Shown: positions 2-9,966, counted from the stretch's first letter. The stretch is DNA of 10,564 nucleotides from Candidatus Eiseniibacteriota bacterium (GCA_034440375.1 JAWXBZ010000084.1:1-10564), one strand, 5' to 3'. The notes: a model not told the origin generated them from the sequence alone. Translations and numbers: made by a program.

Positions 2-1144
2 CGCCGACCCCATCCGGTGGTCATGTTTACTGCCGCGGCGCTTGTTTTTCTATCCACCATGCCGTTGTGGGCTGGCGAGAAGAACCAGAACTTTTTTCGG
101 CATGATCGTCGTGGGAATTACATTGCTCACAACTATGCCTGGAACATGCTTGTGGGGCTGGAGAAGGACGCCATTCTCTTTACCAATGGCGATAACGACA
201 CGTTTCCGCTCTGGTATCTGCAGGTGGTGGAGAAGTTTCGGCCGGATGTTCGCGTGGTCTGTCTGTCACTGCTCAATACGGATTGGTGTATTCGGCAGAT
301 CCGTGACGAGGAGCCGCGCGTTCCAATGGCGATGAGCGACGACGCGATCCGGCGCCTGTCGCCGTATCGCGACAAGACCGGAAAGGTCATCCTGGTCAAG
401 GACATCATGGTCCAGAACATCCTGACCACCAACCAGTGGCGCCGTCCGGTTTACCTGGCGGTGACCGTGCCGGATCAGATGGGGCTGGAGCGTCAGCTGG
501 TCATGGAAGGACTCGTCTTCCGGGTTCACCCCGAGGCGATGCCGTTCCGAATCGATATCGATCGGACCCGGAAGAACCTGGACGAGACGTTTCAGTACCG
601 GGGCTTCCTGAACAGCGACGGCAACTGGGACACCACGGTGTACAAGGACGAACAGTCGACCCGGTTGCTCCAGAATTATGCGGCGGCCCGGGTGCAGCTC
701 GGCCTGTCGCTGTACGAGTCCGGCAATCTGGACCAGGCGCTCCTTGAACTGGAGAAGGCCCGTCGCATCTCCCCGCACTTTCCGGGTATCGTGGCGGCGC
801 TCGGTTTCGTGTACGAGCGGCTGGGGCGGTGGACGGACGCGGCCGACCACTACGAGGGGCAACTCCTGGCCTTCCCGGGCGATGCGGTCCTCCTGGGCAA
901 CCTGGGACGCGTCAAATCCCGGCTGGGGGACACGGCCGCCGCCATCGACCTGCTGGAAAAATCGATCGCGGCCGAGCCGTCGACCGATTTTGCCCCCTAT
1001 ACCGACCTGGTCAACATTCTGTTCACCCGGGGGGACCGGGCCCGTGCGGCCTCCCTCCTGACACAGTGGCTCCGCTATCATCCCGACGACCAGCGGGCGA
1101 AGAATTCGCTCGGGCTGATCCAGGGATCCATGACACGTCCCTGA
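2..1144 (+). CDS. DUF2723/TMEM260-like (GT117) membrane glycosyltransferase with TPRs, C-terminal part only (5' truncated by window)
   Basis: Frame is open from base 2 (RRPHPVVMF...). It contains the last TM helix, then AILFTNGDNDTFPLWY, DVRVVxLSLL and EGLVFR motifs and TPR-like helices. It is colinear with the C-terminal part of the downstream paralogue, so GTG17 is not the true start. Confidence 0.9.
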   Translation, partial: RRPHPVVMFTAAALVFLSTMPLWAGEKNQNFFRHDRRGNYIAHNYAWNMLVGLEKDAILFTNGDNDTFPLWYLQVVEKFRPDVRVVCLSLLNTDWCIRQIRDEEPRVPMAMSDDAIRRLSPYRDKTGKVILVKDIMVQNILTTNQWRRPVYLAVTVPDQMGLERQLVMEGLVFRVHPEAMPFRIDIDRTRKNLDETFQYRGFLNSDGNWDTTVYKDEQSTRLLQNYAAARVQLGLSLYESGNLDQALLELEKARRISPHFPGIVAALGFVYERLGRWTDAADHYEGQLLAFPGDAVLLGNLGRVKSRLGDTAAAIDLLEKSIAAEPSTDFAPYTDLVNILFTRGDRARAASLLTQWLRYHPDDQRAKNSLGLIQGSMTRP

Positions 1145-1179
1145 ACGACGTCGATGTCACTCCTTCCGGGAGATCCTTC

Positions 1180-3735
1180 GTGAACGTTGCAAAAACCGCC
1201 GACACCCTTCCGAAACCGGCCGCGCGATCGTGGTCCCTTCTGCCGGTCACGGCCGAAGGAAAACTGAATGCCTTGATCGGGGCGCTGGTGTTCCTCGTGT
1301 CGCTCTCGGTGTACTGGTACTGCGTCACGCCCACCGTGCCCTACTGGGACTCCGGCGAATACATCGCCACTTCCTACATCCTCGGCGTGCCTCACCCCCC
1401 GGGGACTCCGCTCTATGTCCTGATCGGGCGATTGTTCACCTTCCTGCCGTTGGGGTCGATCGCCGTCCGGGTGAATCTTCTCTCGGCTTTCTCGGCGGCG
1501 GCGGCGGTGCTCTTCACGTACCTGATCACGGTGCGCATCGGCCGGCGGAACTGGCCGGATGCCGGTTGGCTGGCCTACGTCGGCGGGGTAATGGCGGCCT
1601 TCTTCATGGCCTTTGGCACCACCTTCTGGGACAACGCCATCGAGGCCGAGGTCTATGCCTCGGCCTCGGCCATCATGTGTTTCTGCGTCTGGCTGGGTCT
1701 CCTCTGGTGGGAACACCAGGACGAAGCACAGAACGACCGGATCATCTGGTTGATCCTCTACGTACTGTTCCTGGCCATCGGCATCCACATGGGCACCTTC
1801 CTGGTGTTCCCCTGCATCTACCTCCTGGTGACGATGGTTCACTGGCAGCGGGTCAACAAGGGGGCCTTCTGGACATCGATCGTCATCTTCCTGCTGGCCG
1901 CCCTGATCCGAACCGGGATCACCGTCAACGCTCACCGGCAGTTCGATGTGGCGGAGCTGTCGATGGCCCCGGAATCATTCCGGACCGGGGCCTCGCTGAT
2001 GACGCTGATCATGGCGGCGGCCGTGGCCTGGAATGTCGTGTCGGTCCTCGGTGTTCGATTCGCCATCGGGATCGGCGCCCTGGCGGTGCTGGGTGTCAGC
2101 GTGCATCTCTACCTGCTGCTCAGGTCGCAGCTCGATCCGGGAATCAACGAAGCCGATCCTTCCACCTGGGATGCGTTGAAACTGGTTCTTTCGCGCGACC
2201 AGTACAAGCCGCCGGAGCCGATTTTCCGAAAGGCCAATCTGTTCCTCTACCAGTTTCCCCACATGTACTGGCGCTATTTCGAGTGGCAATTCGTACTGTT
2301 CAAGGCCGGAAGCCTGCCGACCTATTGGCTACCGATCCTGCTCGGCGTCTTCGGCGCCGTCCAGAACTACTTCCGCGAGCGGAAATCGTTCTGGCTCATG
2401 GCCACGCTTTTCCTGATCACCGGACCGTTCCTGGTCTGGTACCTGAACTTCCGCGAAGGCGAGGTTCGTGAGCGGGACTACTTCTTCGTGGCCAACTTCC
2501 ATATCTTCGCCATCTGGATCGGCCTCGGTGCCGTGGCCCTCATGCGGATGCTGGCCGGTCCCCGTGAAAAATTGGCCCCCGGAGCCCTGCGCCGGCCGCT
2601 GGTCATGGGCGCGGCCGCGCTTGGACTTGTGCTGTCGGTGCTGCCGCTGGCCGTCGGAGAGGAAAATCAGAGCTTCTTCCGCCACAACCGCCGGGGCAAT
2701 TTCGTGGCGCATGGCTACGGCCACAACATGCTGGTTGGCCTCGACAAGGATGCCATCCTCTTCACCAACGGTGATAACGACACGTTTCCTCTCTGGTACA
2801 TGCAGGAGGTCGAGCGTTTTCGGCGTGATGTTCGAGTCGTGAATCTCTCGCTGCTTCAGACAAGCTGGTACATCAAGCAGTTGCGCGACTACGTGCCAAA
2901 GGTGCCGATGCGCTTCGACGACGGCCAGATCAACGCCCTGCAGCCCTACCGGGAGAAGAACGGCAATATCGTGTATGTCAACGACCTCATGGTCGACCAC
3001 ATCCTGGAAGTCAACGAGTTCAAGCGGCCGGTCTACTATGCCGTCACCGTGCCGGACCAGCGAAACCTGGTGGGTCGGATGAAGATGGAAGGGCTGGTAT
3101 TCCGCATCTACAAGGATCCCGTGACCAACACGGTCGATGTCGAAAAACTGCGCGACAACCTGGACAACCGGTATCACTACCGTGGATTCCTGACCGCCTC
3201 CGGCGACTACGACAACTCCGTGTACAAGGACGAGCAGGCCACCCGACTGCTTCAAAACTACGCGGCGGCCCGGGTTCAGCTGGCCGTCGGCCTGCATCAG
3301 CTCGGCCGGACGAATGAGGCGCGGGCCAATCTTGATCAGGTCCGGAAATACGCCCAGTACTTCCCGGGCGTGGACGCGGCGCTGGGGGCCACGTACGCGC
3401 AGATCGGCATGGCCGACAATGCGATGGCCTATTATGGGGAACTGCTCAAGACAAATCCCAACAATGCCGGAGCACTGGCCATTCTCGGGCACCTGGAGAT
3501 CGAGAAGGGGGACACCACCTCCGCTATCGCGCACCTGACGAGAGCCATCGAGCTCGACCCCGCGGGTGATTTCAACCCGTATGCCGACCTGGCCAACATC
3601 CACCAGACCCGTGGCGACGCCGGCGCCGTGGTGCAGCTGCTGCAAGGGTGGTTGCGACTTCATCCCGAGGACACCCGGGTGCAAAATTACGTCAATTCCG
3701 TGCTCGGGCGACCTCCGGTTCCCGGCTCACGCTAG
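1180..3735 (+). CDS. DUF2723/TMEM260-like (GT117) polytopic membrane glycosyltransferase with C-terminal TPRs, 851 aa
   Basis: N-terminal PTVPYWDSGEYIATSYILGVPHPPGTPLY, NAIEAEVY, L.RDQY, EVRERDYFF and FTNGDNDTFPLWY motifs. Many hydrophobic helices and a TPR-like tail. Start reassigned to GTG1180 (GGGAG at 1168-1172, 7-nt spacer), which removes the overlap with the upstream gene. Confidence 0.9.
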   Translation: MNVAKTADTLPKPAARSWSLLPVTAEGKLNALIGALVFLVSLSVYWYCVTPTVPYWDSGEYIATSYILGVPHPPGTPLYVLIGRLFTFLPLGSIAVRVNLLSAFSAAAAVLFTYLITVRIGRRNWPDAGWLAYVGGVMAAFFMAFGTTFWDNAIEAEVYASASAIMCFCVWLGLLWWEHQDEAQNDRIIWLILYVLFLAIGIHMGTFLVFPCIYLLVTMVHWQRVNKGAFWTSIVIFLLAALIRTGITVNAHRQFDVAELSMAPESFRTGASLMTLIMAAAVAWNVVSVLGVRFAIGIGALAVLGVSVHLYLLLRSQLDPGINEADPSTWDALKLVLSRDQYKPPEPIFRKANLFLYQFPHMYWRYFEWQFVLFKAGSLPTYWLPILLGVFGAVQNYFRERKSFWLMATLFLITGPFLVWYLNFREGEVRERDYFFVANFHIFAIWIGLGAVALMRMLAGPREKLAPGALRRPLVMGAAALGLVLSVLPLAVGEENQSFFRHNRRGNFVAHGYGHNMLVGLDKDAILFTNGDNDTFPLWYMQEVERFRRDVRVVNLSLLQTSWYIKQLRDYVPKVPMRFDDGQINALQPYREKNGNIVYVNDLMVDHILEVNEFKRPVYYAVTVPDQRNLVGRMKMEGLVFRIYKDPVTNTVDVEKLRDNLDNRYHYRGFLTASGDYDNSVYKDEQATRLLQNYAAARVQLAVGLHQLGRTNEARANLDQVRKYAQYFPGVDAALGATYAQIGMADNAMAYYGELLKTNPNNAGALAILGHLEIEKGDTTSAIAHLTRAIELDPAGDFNPYADLANIHQTRGDAGAVVQLLQGWLRLHPEDTRVQNYVNSVLGRPPVPGSR

Positions 3736-3747
3736 GAGAAGAGTTTC

Positions 3748-4728
3748 ATGACCAGCGACCATCGTCCCCTGGCCCTCGTAACCGGCGCGGCCGGCTTCAT
3801 CGGCAGTCACCTGACGGAAGCCCTGCTCCTGGCCGGCTGGCGGGTGCGCGGGGCGGATTGCCTGACGAGCTACTATCCGGTCGCCTTCAAGAAGGCCAAC
3901 CTCACGGCCATTGGCGACAATGATGATTTCGAGTTCATGGAGATCGATCTCAAAACGGCCGACATGGACTTTTTATGCCAGGATGTCTCAGTGGTATTTC
4001 ATCAGGCGGCCCAGCCGGGTGTTCGGGCCAGCTGGGGATCCGAGTTCGAGGTTTACCTGCGTGAAAACATCCTGGTGACGCAACGACTGCTTGAACACTT
4101 CAAGGAGAAGCCGCTCCGGAAATTCGTGTACGCCTCGAGCTCCTCGGTTTACGGCGAAGCGGTCAGCCTCCCGATGAAGGAGACGGACCGACCCCAGCCC
4201 TACAGTCCGTATGGTGTCAGCAAGCTGGCCGCCGAGCATCTCTGTCGCCTGTACACCAGGAACTACGGCCTGCCGACCGTGTCGCTGCGCTACTTCACCG
4301 TGTGCGGTCCCCGACAGCGGCCGGATATGGCCTTTCACAAGCTGGTGCGCTCCATGCTCAAGGGGGAAGAGTTCACGGTGTACGGCGAGGGGGATCAGAC
4401 CCGTGATTTCACCTTCGTCGGTGACGCGGTGGCGGCCAATATCGCCGCGGCTGAAGTGGGGAAACCGGGGGAGGTGTACAACATCGGCGGGGGCGCTCGC
4501 GTGACGCTCAAGGAAGCCATCGCCCTCCTGGAATCGGCAGCCGGGATGAAGGCGCGCGTCCGGTTTGAAGAGAAGCAGAAGGGGGATCCCTCCCACACGG
4601 TGGCCGACACCACCCGGGCCCGCGAAGATTTGAACTACAGGCCGATGACCCCGCTGGCCGAGGCGCTCCGCCTGGAGTACCGGTGGATGGCCGACCTGCT
4701 CGAGCGGCGGGGGAGTCTGCCGGCGTGA
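3748..4728 (+). CDS. NAD-dependent nucleotide-sugar epimerase/dehydratase (extended SDR, UDP-glucuronate 4-epimerase-like)
   Basis: TGAAGFIG Rossmann motif, HQAAQPGVRASW, ASSSSVYG, catalytic YGVSK, RPDMAFHK and GDQTRDFTFV. AGGAG RBS overlaps the upstream stop codon. Confidence 0.92.
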   Translation: MTSDHRPLALVTGAAGFIGSHLTEALLLAGWRVRGADCLTSYYPVAFKKANLTAIGDNDDFEFMEIDLKTADMDFLCQDVSVVFHQAAQPGVRASWGSEFEVYLRENILVTQRLLEHFKEKPLRKFVYASSSSVYGEAVSLPMKETDRPQPYSPYGVSKLAAEHLCRLYTRNYGLPTVSLRYFTVCGPRQRPDMAFHKLVRSMLKGEEFTVYGEGDQTRDFTFVGDAVAANIAAAEVGKPGEVYNIGGGARVTLKEAIALLESAAGMKARVRFEEKQKGDPSHTVADTTRAREDLNYRPMTPLAEALRLEYRWMADLLERRGSLPA

Positions 4729-5687
4729 CCAGCCTGACGCTGGCCGCCTCCCCCGGCCCGACCCTCCGGCTGACAGTGCTCGTTCCGGCATTCAACGAGG
4801 CCGAGAGCCTGCCGGAGCTTGTTTCGACGATTGGGGTCGAGTTGGCAAAGATTGCCGGAGGGACGGAGATCCTGATCATTGATGACGGATCTTCCGATGG
4901 TACTTTGGAATTGCTCCGCGGGATTGCCGCTGGCAATCCCCTGGTGCGGGTAGTTTCCTTTCGTCGCAATTACGGCAAGTCGGCGGCCCTGGCGGTCGGC
5001 TTCGCCGAGGCACGCGGGGAAGTCATCATCACGATGGACGCTGATCTCCAGGACGATCCGGCGGAAATTCCACATCTCCTTTTGCGCCTCGACGAAGGAT
5101 ATGACGTGGTCAGCGGCTGGAAGCAGAATCGCCAGGACCCGATCATGAAGACGATGCCTTCCAAGCTGTTCAACGCCGTTACCTCCGCCGCCTGCGGCCT
5201 GCGGCTGCACGACTTCAACTGTGGCCTCAAGGCCTGGCGCCGCGAGGCGGCCCGCTCGCTGGAGGTGTATGGCGAGTTGCACCGCTACCTGCCGGCGCTC
5301 TCACATCTGCAGGGGTTCAAGGTGACCGAGTTGCCGGTCCGCCATCATGCCCGGCGATACGGGGTCACGAAGTTCGGCAGCAACCGTTTCATCAACGGGT
5401 TCCTTGACCTGTTGGCCGTCATGTTCCTGCATGGCGGCTCCAGGAGCCCCCTCCATTTTTTCGGTCGCATCGGCATCCTCTTCGGCGCGATTGGCGGCCT
5501 GATCCTGGCCTACTTCGCCGTCATCTGGGTGAGTGGCCAGTGGCTCCGGGTCCGCCCGCTGCTGCTCTTCGGCGTGGGCCTCGTGATCCTGGCCACGCAG
5601 TTCATCTCGCTGGGGCTTCTGGGCGAGATGATTGCGCGGGGGCAACAGCAGGATCGGACATATGCGATTCGGGATCGCATCGGATAA
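4725..5687 (+). CDS. GT2 polyprenol-phosphate glycosyltransferase (ArnC/GtrB/DPM1-like) with two C-terminal TM helices, 320 aa
   Basis: VPAFNEAESL, IDDGSSDGT, RNYGKSAAL, MDADLQDDP, HDFNCGLK and GELHRYLP motifs, then two hydrophobic segments. Start reassigned to GTG4725 (GTGA overlap with the epimerase stop, GGGGAG upstream). Confidence 0.9.
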   Translation: MTSLTLAASPGPTLRLTVLVPAFNEAESLPELVSTIGVELAKIAGGTEILIIDDGSSDGTLELLRGIAAGNPLVRVVSFRRNYGKSAALAVGFAEARGEVIITMDADLQDDPAEIPHLLLRLDEGYDVVSGWKQNRQDPIMKTMPSKLFNAVTSAACGLRLHDFNCGLKAWRREAARSLEVYGELHRYLPALSHLQGFKVTELPVRHHARRYGVTKFGSNRFINGFLDLLAVMFLHGGSRSPLHFFGRIGILFGAIGGLILAYFAVIWVSGQWLRVRPLLLFGVGLVILATQFISLGLLGEMIARGQQQDRTYAIRDRIG

Positions 5688-5719
5688 AAAAAGGGAGCGC
5701 CCCCGAAGGAGCGCCCCCC
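5686..5719 (-). terminator. Intrinsic (rho-independent) terminator of the - strand secreted-protein gene
   Basis: The - strand reads GGGGGCGCUCC-UUCG-GGGGCGCUCCC-UUUUUUU: an 11-12 bp stem with G-U wobbles, a cUUCGg tetraloop and a 7-U tail, starting 17 nt after the stop codon. Confidence 0.9.
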
Positions 5720-5736: not shown

Positions 5737-6867
5737 CTAGTTCCCGAAGGGCAGCGACTTGATTGCGCCCCACGTGGTGATCGCGACCGGGACAATTGCC
5801 TCGTTCAGCGTGTAGACGCCCCACTCGGAAATCGTACCCGTGTCGCCGACGCCATTGTCGCCGACATGAAGGGTGAAGCAGCCACCCTTGCGGAAATTGT
5901 CGAACACCGACAGCGGGTCCGCATTGGCATTTCCCCTGTAGCAGCCGCCGGGGATGTTGAAGGCGCTGGTGCCGCAGGAGAAGGGCGCGGTGCCGATGAC
6001 GGCCGTGGAAGCGTCACTGATGTAGATATTGTTGGCGGACAGCAGATTGGACGGGCAGCCGAAGCCGGTCCCGACGGTCGGGATGCAGCTGGCGCGGGCC
6101 GGCCGACAGATGAACTTGGAGCTGGCATCGGCCAGCCCATCGCAATCCTGGTCATAGCTGAGCGTGGCCACGATGTCGCCGAGCCAGGTGTGCGTCATGC
6201 GCAGGCTGACGATGACGTCCAGGAAGCGGGTGCCGTCGTTGGCCGTCGGCAACGTGCCGACCACGACGCCGCCCAGATTGTTGTCCGGAATCGCCAGCGG
6301 CGGCGAAACGGTCACGATGTCGCCCTTGTAGTTCGGAATGTCACAGGTGAGCGGCGGCGGGGTGTTGCAGGTGATGAACGCCTTGTACAAGCCGGCGCTG
6401 GTGGCACCGAAGCCGCGGATACGACCGTAGTAGGTACCGGTGTAGGTTGCGGTGAAATTGAGGAGCGAATAAGCGCCGGGGCCGGCGTCATCGTCGGAAG
6501 CCAGCTGCGTCGTGCCGTCCGCGGCGTACAGGTGAATGAACGTGTCGACGGTGGGCGTGCCATCGGCGTCGGTGCCGAAGGAGATGATCTGGCCGGCCGT
6601 CGCGGTAAAGACGATATAGTCGTTGTCAGCGGCCGTGATGGCGGCCGGGCGAAGCACATCGCCGCAGCTGAAGGCGTTGGCGGTGGGGGCCGTGTTATTC
6701 GGTTCCACTTCCGGCACGTCTGCCGCGACGGAGTAGGCGCCCATCTGTTCGGTCCACTTCGCCTCGTCCTCGATCTCGGGAACGTCGGCCGCCAGGGCCA
6801 TGGTGGCGGTGAGGGCCAGTACGGCCGTCAGCGTGGTTGCCAGCACGTGGTAGCGTTTACGAGCCAT
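5737..6867 (-). CDS. Secreted protein: signal peptide + PPC (pre-peptidase C-terminal)-like domain + proprotein convertase P-domain + C-terminal TTWGAIK motif
   Basis: Sec signal MARKR...ALA|A. PPC-like region EVEPNN...DNDYIVF...VDTFIHLY...DDDAGPG...GTYY. P-domain-like region AIPDN...VSLRMTHTWLGDI...FTLHVGD...DTGTISEW. AGGAG RBS lies 8 nt upstream and the gene has its own terminator. Confidence 0.85.
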   Translation of the reverse strand: MARKRYHVLATTLTAVLALTATMALAADVPEIEDEAKWTEQMGAYSVAADVPEVEPNNTAPTANAFSCGDVLRPAAITAADNDYIVFTATAGQIISFGTDADGTPTVDTFIHLYAADGTTQLASDDDAGPGAYSLLNFTATYTGTYYGRIRGFGATSAGLYKAFITCNTPPPLTCDIPNYKGDIVTVSPPLAIPDNNLGGVVVGTLPTANDGTRFLDVIVSLRMTHTWLGDIVATLSYDQDCDGLADASSKFICRPARASCIPTVGTGFGCPSNLLSANNIYISDASTAVIGTAPFSCGTSAFNIPGGCYRGNANADPLSVFDNFRKGGCFTLHVGDNGVGDTGTISEWGVYTLNEAIVPVAITTWGAIKSLPFGN

Positions 6868-7058: not shown

Positions 7059-7161
7059 TGGTTATTGATCAAAATCCAGTAGGATGTGCCACGTGCCGGG
7101 CGGTTCGTACCCGGATGGGGACGGGCGCCGATCCCCACGACCACTCAGGGGGAGCGGGATC

Positions 7162-7950
7162 TTGACGACACGACAGGCGGTGATTCTGGCCGGAGGCCTG
7201 GGAACCCGGATCGCCGCACTATCCGGCGGCCTCCCGAAGATCCTGCTTCCTGTGGCCGGGAGGCCGTTCCTTCACCATTTGCTTGAACACCTTGCCGGAC
7301 AGGGGATTACCGAGGTCGTGCTGCTACTGGGAGTCGGCGCTGACGCCGTGGTGGCGGCGGCCCGGACCGATCCACTCCCAGGATTGTTGGTGGCCACCTC
7401 CGTCGAGCCCCGGCCGCTTGGGACTGGCGGGGCTCTCCGGTTGGCGGCGAATCAACTGGCTGACCGGTTCTTCCTGGTCAACGGCGACACATTGCTGCGG
7501 GCCGACCTCCCGGCACTTGAGCGGCGGCATGTTGCCGGAGGCTTGCCGGGAGCCGGGACCGGGTCGGTCGTCGGCGCGCTGTTCGAACGAGACCCCCTGC
7601 CATCAGCGAGCGCCGACACTGCCGCCACACTGGCCCTGGTGCGCGTGACCGAGGCCGGCCAGAAGGGAAGCGTCGAGTTGAACGAACGCGGCTTCATCAC
7701 CCGCTTCCTCGAAAAGGGCCGAAGCGGGCCGGGCCTGATCAACGGCGGCGTCTACTTGATTGAAAAGGATGCCGTGAGCGACATTCCTCTGCATCGACCC
7801 GTGTCGCTGGAGCAGGAGATCCTGCCGGCGTGGATAGATCGAGGTGGTCGGCCCGCATTGCAGGGTGTCGTGACCGATGCCTACTTCGTCGACATCGGTT
7901 TACCGGAGGATTATCTCGGAGTGATCAATGGCTTCCCGGACAAAAAGTAA
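7162..7950 (+). CDS. Sugar-1-phosphate nucleotidyltransferase, HddC-like (D-glycero-alpha-D-manno-heptose 1-phosphate guanylyltransferase) / NTP_transferase family, 262 aa
   Basis: AVILAGGLGTR...PK, GRPFL, EPRPLGTGGAL, VNGDT, FLEK, INGGVY, SLEQE and FVDIGLPEDY motifs. No C-terminal beta-helix domain. Adjacent to an HddA-like kinase. Start reassigned to TTG7162 (GGGGGAG at 7148-7154). Confidence 0.82.
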   Translation: MTTRQAVILAGGLGTRIAALSGGLPKILLPVAGRPFLHHLLEHLAGQGITEVVLLLGVGADAVVAAARTDPLPGLLVATSVEPRPLGTGGALRLAANQLADRFFLVNGDTLLRADLPALERRHVAGGLPGAGTGSVVGALFERDPLPSASADTAATLALVRVTEAGQKGSVELNERGFITRFLEKGRSGPGLINGGVYLIEKDAVSDIPLHRPVSLEQEILPAWIDRGGRPALQGVVTDAYFVDIGLPEDYLGVINGFPDKK

Positions 7951-9064
7951 GCCGGTCGTCGCTCCGTCAGGGCGTCGGATCGGACTGACCCCCGTCACTC
8001 CGCAACACCGCAAGACCGGCTCGCCTCCCGCCGTGCTGTACCGCGCGCGCGCGCCGCTCCGCATTTCGTTTTGCGGCGGCGGGACCGATGTCGATCCGTA
8101 CCCCGCCGAACGGGGAGGTGTGGTCCTCTCGACCACGATCGACAAATTTGCCTGGGCCACGCTCCGACCAAGGCCTGACAGCCGGATGACGATTCACTCG
8201 CTCGATTACAACGTGGTGGCCAACTACCGGGTGAAGGGGCGGAAGCTGGCCTATGACGGTGAGCTGGATATCGTCAAGGCCGTTGCCAACCACTTCAAGC
8301 CGAAGTCAGGATTCGATCTCTTTCTTCATTCGGATGCCCCGCCCGGCTCGGGACTCGGATCATCATCGACGATGACCGTGGCCCTGGTCGGCCTGATGCG
8401 CGAGTGGCTCCGATTGCCGCTGACCGATTACGAGATTGCCGAGCTGACGTATCAGATCGAGCGGATCGAACTCAAGCTGGCCGGCGGCCGGCAGGATCAA
8501 TATGCCGCCACGTTCGGCGGATTCAACTTCATCGAGTTTCATGACGGCGTCACCGTCGTGAATCCGCTCCGGATCAAGCCGGCCACCATCCGCGAACTGG
8601 AGTACAACCTGCTGCTCTGCTTCACCGGCCGTACCCGCGAGTCAGCCGGCATCGTGGCCGAGCAGACGAAGGCGTACATGCAGAAGCGGAAGGGGGTCGT
8701 CCAGGCCCTCGATCGGATGAAGAGCCTCACGCTGGAGATGAAGTCGTGCCTGCTGCGCGATCGCCTGGCCGACTTCGGCAGCCTCCTGCACACCGCCTGG
8801 CAGGAAAAGACACGCCTCTCCGACCGGATCAGCACGGAGCGGATTGATGAGCTGTACGCCGTCGCACGCAAGGCCGGCGCGCTGGGCGGCAAGATCCTTG
8901 GCGCCGGCGGCGGCGGCTATCTCCTGATCTATGTTCCCTTCAACGCGCGACACCTGGTGGCCGAAAAGCTGGAGGCGGGCGGGGGACAGGTCGTGCCGTT
9001 TTCGTTCCGCGAGGATGGGCTGGTGACCTGGACGGCTGAGGCGGGTGGAAAGGCGTCGCGGTGA
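7928..9064 (+). CDS. hddA: GHMP-family sugar kinase, D-glycero-alpha-D-manno-heptose 7-phosphate kinase-like
   Basis: RAPLRISFCGGGTD, SDAPPGSGLGSSS (GHMP ATP-binding loop), GGRQDQYAATFGGFN and GGKILGAGGGG motifs. GGAG lies 6 nt upstream of the ATG; 23-nt overlap with the nucleotidyltransferase. Confidence 0.8.
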   Translation: MASRTKSKPVVAPSGRRIGLTPVTPQHRKTGSPPAVLYRARAPLRISFCGGGTDVDPYPAERGGVVLSTTIDKFAWATLRPRPDSRMTIHSLDYNVVANYRVKGRKLAYDGELDIVKAVANHFKPKSGFDLFLHSDAPPGSGLGSSSTMTVALVGLMREWLRLPLTDYEIAELTYQIERIELKLAGGRQDQYAATFGGFNFIEFHDGVTVVNPLRIKPATIRELEYNLLLCFTGRTRESAGIVAEQTKAYMQKRKGVVQALDRMKSLTLEMKSCLLRDRLADFGSLLHTAWQEKTRLSDRISTERIDELYAVARKAGALGGKILGAGGGGYLLIYVPFNARHLVAEKLEAGGGQVVPFSFREDGLVTWTAEAGGKASR

Positions 9065-9966
9065 GGGTTCGGGATAATTTCAGACTTCGGTTGAGGGAGC
9101 GGCCTGCTGCCGGCCGGATGCTCACGGTCGGTCACGTGCTCACGACGGCTCTCTTGCTCACGGTCCCTTTTCTGCCCGCTCCCGCCCGTGGCACGGAGCC
9201 TTCCCGGGCCGCGGAGCCCCAGCGCGCGGCCGACCCCTGCGGCCCGGCACGGGCCCTGCCGGCCTATGCGCACAATGACTATCGAAACACGCGCCCGCGC
9301 GAGGAAGCCCTGGAGCTGGGTTACCTGGGTATCGAGGCGGATGTCTTTCTCGTCGACGGTACGTTCCTCCTGGCTCATGATCGCAAGGACATTCGAAACG
9401 ACTTCGGCTTCGAGGCCACCTATCTCTGGCACCTGCTGGACCGGGTTCAACGATGCGCGCGCGTCCTTCCCGATGCGCGCCCGTTCCTGATCGCAATAGA
9501 GGACAAGGCACCGACAGTGGAGAGTCGGCTCGCGATGGCCTCACTCCTCGGACGCTACCGGGCGCTGCTCCGGCCGGCCCAGGATCATCCGATCGCCGAG
9601 TTCATTCTCGTCGATGACAGCGCCACACCCGAATCGATCCCGGAGGATCTGAAGCGCTTCGTCGGCTTCCAATGGCGCGTTACCAGTCGGAACCCCGCCC
9701 CGCCGGCCGCCTCCGCCGCCAACTATCGTCTCCTGAGCCTCGATTTCAAGAAGGAGGTCGGGTGGGATGGAACCGGTGACCCGCCTCCCGCCCTGCGCAA
9801 ATTGATTCCCGCCGTCGTCGCCGCCGCGAAATGCATTCCGGGTTGCCGCGTGCGAGTTCACAACGTTCCCGTGCGCGGCCGCATCTGGACCTACCTGCTC
9901 GACGCCGGCGTCGACCTGATCGGTGTGACGGAGTTGTCGAAAGGGGCCGGGTTGCTGGGGGGGTAG
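9061..9966 (+). CDS. Putative exported PLC-like/GDPD-superfamily phosphodiesterase (AIM6-like)
   Basis: AHNDY...ALELGYLGIEADVFLVDG.FLLAHD at the N-terminus and W..LLDAGVDLIG at the C-terminus fit this TIM-barrel family. A hydrophobic signal-like stretch ends in PARG. Start is either GTG9061 (GTGA overlap) or ATG9118. Confidence 0.7.
   Translation: MRVRDNFRLRLRERPAAGRMLTVGHVLTTALLLTVPFLPAPARGTEPSRAAEPQRAADPCGPARALPAYAHNDYRNTRPREEALELGYLGIEADVFLVDGTFLLAHDRKDIRNDFGFEATYLWHLLDRVQRCARVLPDARPFLIAIEDKAPTVESRLAMASLLGRYRALLRPAQDHPIAEFILVDDSATPESIPEDLKRFVGFQWRVTSRNPAPPAASAANYRLLSLDFKKEVGWDGTGDPPPALRKLIPAVVAAAKCIPGCRVRVHNVPVRGRIWTYLLDAGVDLIGVTELSKGAGLLGG

Follow-up and report, generated by a model that had tools for sequence, protein, structure and literature searches.

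TMEM260 of humans (CAZy family GT117; PDB entries 9rql, 9rqm and 9rqn), reportedly recognised as a glycosyltransferase (GT) in 2023, is a protein O-mannosyltransferase of the endoplasmic reticulum that modifies IPT domains. It consists of a GT-C core (residues 24-415), a Rossmann-like (Rl) domain (416-564) and a tetratricopeptide repeat (TPR) region (565-706), and takes its sugar from dolichyl-phosphate mannose (Dol-P-Man) (according to the available part of 10.64898/2026.03.17.711096). In the same source, D52 and H67 are reported to hold the donor, the D52A and H67A replacements inactivating the enzyme, D441 is the proposed catalytic base, the D441A variant being inactive, and the TPR alone is enough for binding of the acceptor peptide. 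Here we describe a bacterial locus that encodes relatives of this protein. It occupies positions 2-5687 of a 10,564-nt stretch of DNA from a Candidatus Eiseniibacteriota bacterium (GCA_034440375.1 JAWXBZ010000084.1:1-10564; this whole stretch is referred to as the window) and contains two TMEM260-like genes, named tmA and tmB, followed by genes for a sugar epimerase and a family 2 glycosyltransferase (GT2). In our preferred reading, to which we give a probability of about 0.5, the four genes belong to a single operon that serves periplasmic glycosylation from a lipid-linked donor, with a protein as acceptor.

Several other described systems resemble this locus. The PMT and TMTC1-4 proteins share the GT-C fold and the transfer of a sugar from a polyprenyl-phosphate carrier to Ser/Thr, and form multi-member families that divide protein clients; TMTCs likewise carry lumenal TPRs (PMC10214176, available part). 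Modification of lipid A is the function of the ArnC and ArnT proteins, which act in undecaprenyl-phosphate-L-Ara4FN synthesis and in the transfer of this sugar to lipid A, respectively. The Rgt system of Rhizobium and Mesorhizobium starts with a UDP-glucuronate (UDP-GlcA) 4-epimerase, which we take to be LpsL. It continues with RgtE, a GT2 that makes bactoprenyl-phosphate galacturonate (GalA), and with periplasmic GT-C transferases, RgtA-D/F, which act on lipid A and the lipopolysaccharide (LPS) core, GalA being put on lipid A by RgtD/F (PMC7663294, in the part available).

Four coupled genes and their TMEM260-like products

Positions 2-5687 hold four co-directional open reading frames (ORFs) on the + strand that are tightly coupled, as found by ORF calling and with the spacing read from the sequence. 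These genes, the parts of tmB discussed below and a hairpin that follows them are:

2..1144, + strand: tmA, 5'-open at the window edge, stop codon TGA at 1142-1144; C-terminal 380 aa of a TMEM260-like paralog
1180..3735, + strand: tmB, GTG start at 1180, 851 aa; predicted full-length TMEM260-like (GT117-type) GT-C glycosyltransferase
1348..1359, + strand: DSGE motif (D57-E60) in the first periplasmic loop of tmB, equivalent to TMEM260 D52-S-G-E55
2662..3219, + strand: predicted Rossmann-like periplasmic domain of tmB (about residues 495-680), with strands and helices alternating in the model from E526-529 to E640-643
2767..2784, + strand: NGDNDT motif (N530-T535) at the start of the Rossmann-like domain of tmB, with D532 at nt 2773-2775
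3232..3705, + strand: TPR region of tmB (about residues 685-842), about ten helices (H685-H842 in the model)
3748..4728, + strand: epimerase, ATG start, 326 aa; NAD-dependent extended short-chain dehydrogenase/reductase (SDR)
4725..5687, + strand: GT2, GTG start, 320 aa; ArnC/GtrB/DPM1 type
5692..5719, no strand assigned: G+C-rich hairpin whose 12-bp stem has 9 G-C pairs, preceded by an A-run and with a T-run on the minus strand

The spacing is 35 nt between tmA and tmB and 12 nt between tmB and the epimerase gene, with AGGAGAA inside the latter, and the GT2 start overlaps the epimerase stop in the sequence GTGA; GGGAGA is present 6 nt 5' of the GTG start of tmB. All these ORFs and distances are as reported in an earlier reading of this DNA (hereafter the initial annotation). 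The hairpin sits between the convergent GT2 and 5737-6867 genes and marks the end of the operon. The initial annotation also described two membrane proteins with DUF2723 and TPRs, which is correct for tmB, whereas the DUF2723/PF11028 part of tmA lies outside the window and only the C-terminal 380 aa of this protein are present.

The tmB protein matches the Pfam family PF11028 ('TMEM260-like', formerly DUF2723) over profile positions 1-177 of 179 (E 7.7e-45; 153.3 bits, cut-off 24.2), and the human TMEM260 chain 9rql is its sole non-TPR sequence match in the PDB (E 6e-23 in a single-sequence search, 1.5e-46 in a profile search). On these alignments, tmB is a true relative of TMEM260/GT117, in agreement with the membership proposed before. 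Its TPRs are recognised by TPR_19, TPR_14, TPR_8 and related Pfam families at residues 733-809, and neither PMT nor PMT_2 of Pfam is matched at E up to 0.01. The tmA product comprises the last transmembrane helix, the Rl domain and the TPRs, with Pfam TPR matches and one hydrophobic segment at residues 6-24, its N-terminal GT-C part being outside the window. Because its PF11028 domain is thus missing from view, tmA is put in the TMEM260 family on account of a 371-aa alignment with residues 473-843 of tmB, in which 51% of the positions are identical and by which it is a paralog of this family.

Structure prediction for tmB with AlphaFold2, built from 40 homologs, resulted in a model with a predicted local distance difference test score (pLDDT) of 88.7 and a predicted template-modelling score (pTM) of 0.88. 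The model aligns with solved GT-C structures (STT3, Pmt4, Pmt1-2, ALG12, PglB and ArnT) over 378-442 residues with a root-mean-square deviation of 3.9-4.9 Å and Z-scores of 24-25, and this predicted structure confirms the GT-C fold that had been anticipated for the membrane core of tmB. The best Z-scores all fall within 1 unit (25.0 for STT3 in VIA, 24.5-24.8 for Pmt1-2 and Pmt4, and 24.1 for ArnT), the top Foldseek ranks are the oligosaccharyltransferases PglB, AglB and STT3 (E 6e-7 to 1e-5), and the modelled fold alone cannot tell the class of the acceptor. The TPR region reaches Z-scores of about 16-17 with TPR proteins and with the TPRs of OGT. TMEM260 itself is absent from the Foldseek and VIA matches, and the comparison between tmB and TMEM260 is therefore made by sequence alone.

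In this comparison, residues D57-S-G-E60 of tmB fall on D52-S-G-E55 of TMEM260 and H72 (nt 1393-1395) on H67, ungapped in the 9rql alignment. Conservation of these and other residues was assessed in an alignment of 40 sequences obtained by a HMMER representative search that is independent of motifs (A1), and in loci from a motif-seeded scan with one genome per species, which retrieved 607 relatives; the best 80 were kept and correspond to 79 loci, all in phyla of the Fibrobacterota-Chlorobiota-Bacteroidota (FCB) group. Fractions over these 79 loci describe the close relatives of tmB rather than the whole family. W56, D57, E60 and H72 are invariant in A1 (40/40) and in all 74 aligned locus proteins, with two further rows being gapped. 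When residues 485-690 of tmB are searched alone against the PDB, the only significant match is again 9rql (E 1.1e-5), in which tmB 503-590 aligns to TMEM260 412-497 with D532 over D441. G531-D532-N533-D534-T535 is invariant in A1, the alignment that counts here, because the 79 loci were retrieved with the NGDNDT and RERDY motifs and the invariance of these motifs among them is no evidence. The tmA protein keeps NGDNDT as well, with D64 (nt 191-193) aligning to D532 of tmB.

As judged from these alignments, the bacterial proteins share the three-part architecture of TMEM260 and its split active site (D57/H72 and D532). The DSGE motif is found where the initial annotation had placed it, and its Asp is conserved and corresponds to D52; in the human enzyme, D52 serves donor binding and the proposed base is D441 (10.64898/2026.03.17.711096, available part). 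D532, as the counterpart of D441, represents a second control residue beside the DSGE Asp.

Nevertheless, tmB differs from TMEM260 in several respects. It is a bacterial, periplasmic protein occurring as one of two tandem paralogs, and it is longer (851 versus 707 aa), with a TPR tail of about ten helices versus the five given in the available text on TMEM260. The base is located in an invariant NGDNDTxP in the bacterial proteins and in RGDLPGN in the human one, the predicted donor is a polyprenyl-phosphate hexuronate instead of Dol-P-Man, and the sequence-alignable part amounts to only about 140 + 88 residues. With respect to PMTs, tmB has the Rossmann-like domain where these enzymes have a MIR domain.

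Probable supply of the donor and linkage of the genes

The epimerase belongs to the Pfam family Epimerase (E 6e-58), and its best PDB matches are 6zl6 (E 1.2e-84) and MoeE5 (E 1.5e-56). We take 6zl6 to be the UDP-GlcA 4-epimerase of Bacillus cereus (BcUGAepi) and MoeE5 to act on UDP-GlcA; in support of the identity of 6zl6, its residue 149 is the Tyr of the YxxxK motif, whereas the sister entry 6zlj has Phe there. The catalytic YxxxK of the window's epimerase is formed by Y155 and K159, Y155 aligning to Y149 of 6zl6, and S131-S133, T184 and R191 (nt 4318-4320) match T126-S128, T178 and R185, respectively. The roles that we ascribe to the Ser/Thr residues of BcUGAepi (T178 and T126-S128) are in part our assumption. 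R185 of this enzyme binds the carboxylate of UDP-GalA (PMC12338863, in the part available). GPRQRPDM is kept in all seven operon-linked epimerase orthologs that were aligned. None of the NCBIfam equivalogs is matched above its cut-off, the best being dTDP-glucose dehydratase (152.6 against 365) and GalE (146 against 262). From these similarities, the protein is most likely a UDP-GlcA 4-epimerase that makes UDP-GalA. Because it is closest to UDP-GlcA 4-epimerases and keeps the carboxylate-binding Arg, the donor sugar is probably galacturonate, presented as polyprenyl-phosphate GalA, rather than mannose.

A second epimerase-GT2 pair, located by a UDP-sugar dehydrogenase gene in the closest complete relative (an Eisenbacteria genome, G001), was considered as further support for GalA and rejected, as its epimerase is without equivalents of R185 and T178 (GPRQTADS, RYFNV) and has a different specificity. 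This second pair belongs to a Wza/Wzc-type export cluster (L082; G001:C1:1358000-1375000), where the dehydrogenase, the epimerase (41% identity) and the GT2 (47%) are accompanied by a PMT_2-type GT-C, which shows that a cassette of this kind can be combined with another GT-C family.

The GT2 matches PF00535 Glycos_transf_2 (E 3e-29; 102.6 bits) and, nearly end to end (residues 11-306), the ArnC structures (E 1e-54), followed by GtrB sll0501 (E 5e-27) and Dol-P-Man synthase (E 2e-16). It has a DAD motif at residues 105-107 (nt 5037-5045) and C-terminal hydrophobic helices at 249-267 and 273-291. Its assignment in the initial annotation as a polyprenyl-phosphate glycosyltransferase of the ArnC/GtrB/DPM1 type is plausible by homology, but identification as an ArnC equivalog is rejected (NCBIfam NF007986, 186.7 bits against a cut-off of 529). 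In addition to the GT2, the likeness to the ArnC/ArnT system includes the tmB model, which is close to ArnT (Z 24.1), whereas the window's operon is without ArnA, ArnB and ArnD homologs and its GT-C belongs to a different family. The likeness to the Rgt system lies in the succession of a UDP-GlcA 4-epimerase, a GT2 polyprenyl-phosphate-GalA synthase and a periplasmic GT-C, all three predicted here. Neither a UDP-glucose dehydrogenase nor a flippase gene was detected in the window by Pfam and NCBIfam scans.

The closest of the 79 loci are from Candidatus Eisenbacteria, with about 40% identity. An epimerase ortholog (at least 45% identity) is found directly downstream of the GT-C gene in seven loci (L001-L005, L007 and L012) and a GT2 ortholog (at least 45% identity) in six (L002, L003, L004, L007, L012 and L057), both being present in five; the contigs of L001 and L005 end before the GT2 position, and downstream sequence of 2.2 kb or more is available for 65 of the 79 loci. 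In a FastTree phylogeny of 76 proteins of the family, the seven epimerase-linked loci group with the window in one clade without unlinked members, which comprises Eisenbacteria, Krumholzibacteriota, Latescibacterota and unnamed metagenome-assembled genomes, and the Fibrobacterota locus L057 is placed elsewhere. Because the gene order recurs in related genomes, the four-gene arrangement is beyond chance. The linkage is real and old, but specific to the window's clade: the conservation that the initial annotation had expected from a neighbourhood survey is seen in all seven loci of this clade and does not extend beyond it (7/79). Tandem GT-C paralogs as in the window also occur in L005, L013, L017 and L019. 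In other loci, the GT-C gene is accompanied by an LPG_synthase_TM (flippase-like) protein, by a GT2 that is DPM-like and more distant, or by both, and when these are counted 12/79 loci have either. In L057 and L083 (Zixibacteria), the order is rib genes or nusB, TMEM260-like, GT4, LPG_synthase_TM, DPM-like GT2, further GT2s and accA. The number of PF11028 matches per genome is seven in G001, six in a Zixibacteria genome and one in each of three other genomes.

In the pathway that we propose, the cytoplasmic SDR epimerase would convert UDP-GlcA to UDP-GalA, and the membrane-anchored GT2 would move GalA onto a polyprenyl phosphate (e.g., undecaprenyl phosphate). The lipid-linked sugar would then be flipped across the membrane, where the two tandem TMEM260-like GT-Cs would transfer it, with inversion, to a hydroxyl group of the acceptor. 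D57 and H72 in the membrane-proximal loop would hold the donor, D532 in the Rossmann-like 'palm' would act as the base, and the TPR 'fingers' would hold the acceptor, likely Ser/Thr residues of exported proteins, with each paralog having its own clients. The operon thereby names a probable donor (polyprenyl-phosphate GalA) and two candidate catalytic residues (D57 and D532) for a family of unknown function.

Protein or lipid-linked glycan as acceptor

The acceptor is the least certain part of this pathway, and the chance that it is a protein is at best even. A protein is favoured because of the homology to TMEM260, which is the only characterised member of the family and is protein-specific, and because of the conserved Rl-TPR lobe. 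The expansion of paralogs, with the seven PF11028 matches of G001, also argues for a protein acceptor in resembling the PMT and TMTC families that divide protein clients. If the acceptor is a protein, the operon would represent a new kind of bacterial protein O-glycosylation and bear on the unidentified O-glycosyltransferase of Bacteroidota (see below).

The same enzymology and donor may instead serve a lipid-anchored glycan, that is, lipid A or the LPS core, another lipid-linked polysaccharide or a membrane glycolipid, which we regard as possible although short of an even chance. The GT-Cs would then carry out a periplasmic decoration like that by ArnT, RgtA-D/F and the mycobacterial PimE/Mpt, with the TPR docking on envelope-assembly proteins. 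A number of observations weigh against the proposed protein-modifying pathway, and those on precedent and gene neighbourhood speak for this second acceptor class. Rgt is the only characterised route from a UDP-GlcA epimerase through polyprenyl-phosphate GalA to a GT-C, and it modifies lipid A and the LPS core (PMC7663294, available part). The neighbours of the family genes in relatives (GT4, GT9, MsbA-like ABC transporter and WecA-like proteins) fit LPS or a lipid-linked glycan equally well, which takes away from the protein acceptor assumed in the initial annotation. In G001, genes for an MsbA-like ABC transporter and a GT9 (heptosyltransferase family) precede, in this order, those for the TMEM260-like protein, the epimerase and the GT2, the upstream genes having the same direction and overlapping ends, with an overlap of 11 nt between the GT9 and GT-C genes. 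Across the 79 loci, GT4 adjoins in 14, GT9 in 8 and a further GT2 in 12, at least one of them being present in 36, and a WecA-like gene is found in L083. Also in line with a lipid-linked glycan are the TMEM260-like, GT4, LPG_synthase_TM, GT2 order in L057 and L083, the HddC/HddA-like genes of NDP-heptose type 1.4 kb downstream in the window, and the fold search, in which ArnT (Z 24.1) is level with protein transferases.

Other points against the proposed pathway concern acceptor motifs, donor and active site. A search for a protein substrate encoded in the window yielded no candidate. No protein of the window is enriched in the Bacteroidota sequon D(S/T)(A/I/L/V/M/T); the protein encoded at 5737-6867, considered as an acceptor, has 0 D[ST][AILVMT] motifs against a shuffle mean of 2.2, and it has no tblastn relative in any of the loci (0/79) and is not conserved beside the operon. 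The epimerase is absent in 72/79 loci, and GalA is therefore at best specific to the window's clade. Finally, the region of R264, Y267 and R355 in the donor-loading loop/TMH10 of TMEM260 is covered by no significant sequence alignment with tmB, in which R315, R339/Q341/Y342 and R430/R432 are invariant in A1.

Against a lipid-linked acceptor stand the protein specificity of the sole characterised TMEM260-family member, whose TPR alone binds the acceptor peptide according to the available text, and the seven paralogs in one genome, which are many for LPS decoration; cytoplasmic GTs are moreover usual neighbours in protein-glycosylation loci too. In addition, the known GT-Cs of lipid A and LPS, ArnT and Rgt, are PMT_2/ArnT-family proteins and are not known to have a Rossmann-like or TPR lobe. 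Should the acceptor nonetheless be LPS or a glycolipid, the TMEM260 architecture would not be limited to protein acceptors.

A third explanation, that the genes are neighbours without a shared pathway, so that the epimerase and GT2 supply another GT-C (ArnT/PMT_2-type) and the TMEM260-like proteins use, e.g., polyprenyl-phosphate mannose, seems improbable. It would account for the missing epimerase in most loci, for the large distance that separates GT2 orthologs (49-55% identity) from the only TMEM260-like gene of genomes G004 and G005, and for the second epimerase-GT2 pair of G001 that adjoins a PMT_2-type GT-C. However, the genes are translationally coupled, with the 12-nt gap and the GTGA overlap, and Eisenbacteria, Krumholzibacteriota and Latescibacterota retain their order although the GT-Cs are only ~35-40% identical; by a rough estimate, two pairs and seven PF11028 matches in 4.6 Mb give a chance adjacency of ~1% per genome. 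Least probable is an oligosaccharyltransferase-like function, in which the TMEM260-like proteins would transfer a preassembled glycan en bloc from polyprenyl diphosphate and the GT2 would supply a side decoration only: PglB, AglB and STT3 do lead the Foldseek ranking, STT3 reaches a Z-score of 25.0, and relatives have genes for an initiating transferase (WecA-like), a flippase (Wzx-like) and several cytoplasmic GTs nearby, but the Z-scores of Pmt4, Pmt1-2, ALG12 and ArnT differ from those of the oligosaccharyltransferases by no more than 1 unit, the fold being not discriminating, TMEM260 itself uses Dol-P-Man (10.64898/2026.03.17.711096, available part), and a dedicated polyprenyl-phosphate-monosaccharide synthase is translationally coupled in the same operon.

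Occurrence of the family and remaining genes of the window

The TMEM260-like family is very large, comprising 1267 representative clusters at an E threshold of 1e-30 and 8481 at one of 1e-10. PF11028 is matched above the Pfam cut-off in 201/201 evenly sampled Bacteroidota genomes (G004 and G006-G205), mostly by a single copy of about 880-1300 aa, and in 1/14 control genomes, that of Bacteroides thetaiotaomicron. The view of the initial annotation that bacterial members are largely uncharacterised agrees with the literature, in which no paper characterising one was found; the available part of the TMEM260 discovery paper states only 'distant homologs in bacteria' (PMC10214176). A lead rather than evidence is a 2024 paper according to which, as far as its available text goes, the O-glycan of Bacteroidota has a conserved hexuronate whose glycosyltransferase is still to be identified (PMC10897501). 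That TMEM260-family proteins are the initiating protein O-glycosyltransferases of FCB bacteria, including the enzyme so far missing from the O-glycosylation system found throughout the phylum Bacteroidota, with tandem paralogs in the window's clade putting GalA directly on Ser/Thr of exported proteins, is a speculative and rather unlikely extension; if true, no earlier pathway for protein O-galacturonosylation would precede it.

In loci from Bacteroidota, Ignavibacteria and Chlorobi, lepA, two signal peptidase I genes (lepB) and a gene for a HemN-like radical SAM protein (hemW) are found upstream of the family gene, in the order lepA-lepB-lepB-hemW in L016, L021, L023, L034, L049, L052, L060, L076 and others. 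This is probably housekeeping synteny and was not used as evidence for a protein acceptor.

Downstream of the operon, the window contains the following genes:

5737-6867, - strand: secreted protein of 376 aa, convergent with GT2, which starts with a hydrophobic signal and weakly matches the PPC pre-peptidase domain and the proprotein-convertase P-domain
7084-9064, + strand: overlapping pair of nucleotidyltransferase and GHMP kinase genes, with NCBIfam matches below cut-offs
9061-9966, + strand: ORF of 301 aa, its start overlapping the kinase stop by 4 nt, with one N-terminal hydrophobic segment
10162-10563, + strand: partial DoxX-like membrane protein, after the 301-aa ORF

The 9061-9966 ORF has no Pfam or NCBIfam match. 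The first gene of the 7084-9064 pair encodes an HddC/ManC-like nucleotidyltransferase (127-139 bits, below cut-offs), and the GHMP kinase encoded by the second is nearest to the D-glycero-D-manno-heptose 7-phosphate kinase HddA (291 bits against a cut-off of 600). By these matches, the pair resembles a module for the activation of an NDP-heptose-type sugar, located next to the glycosylation operon.

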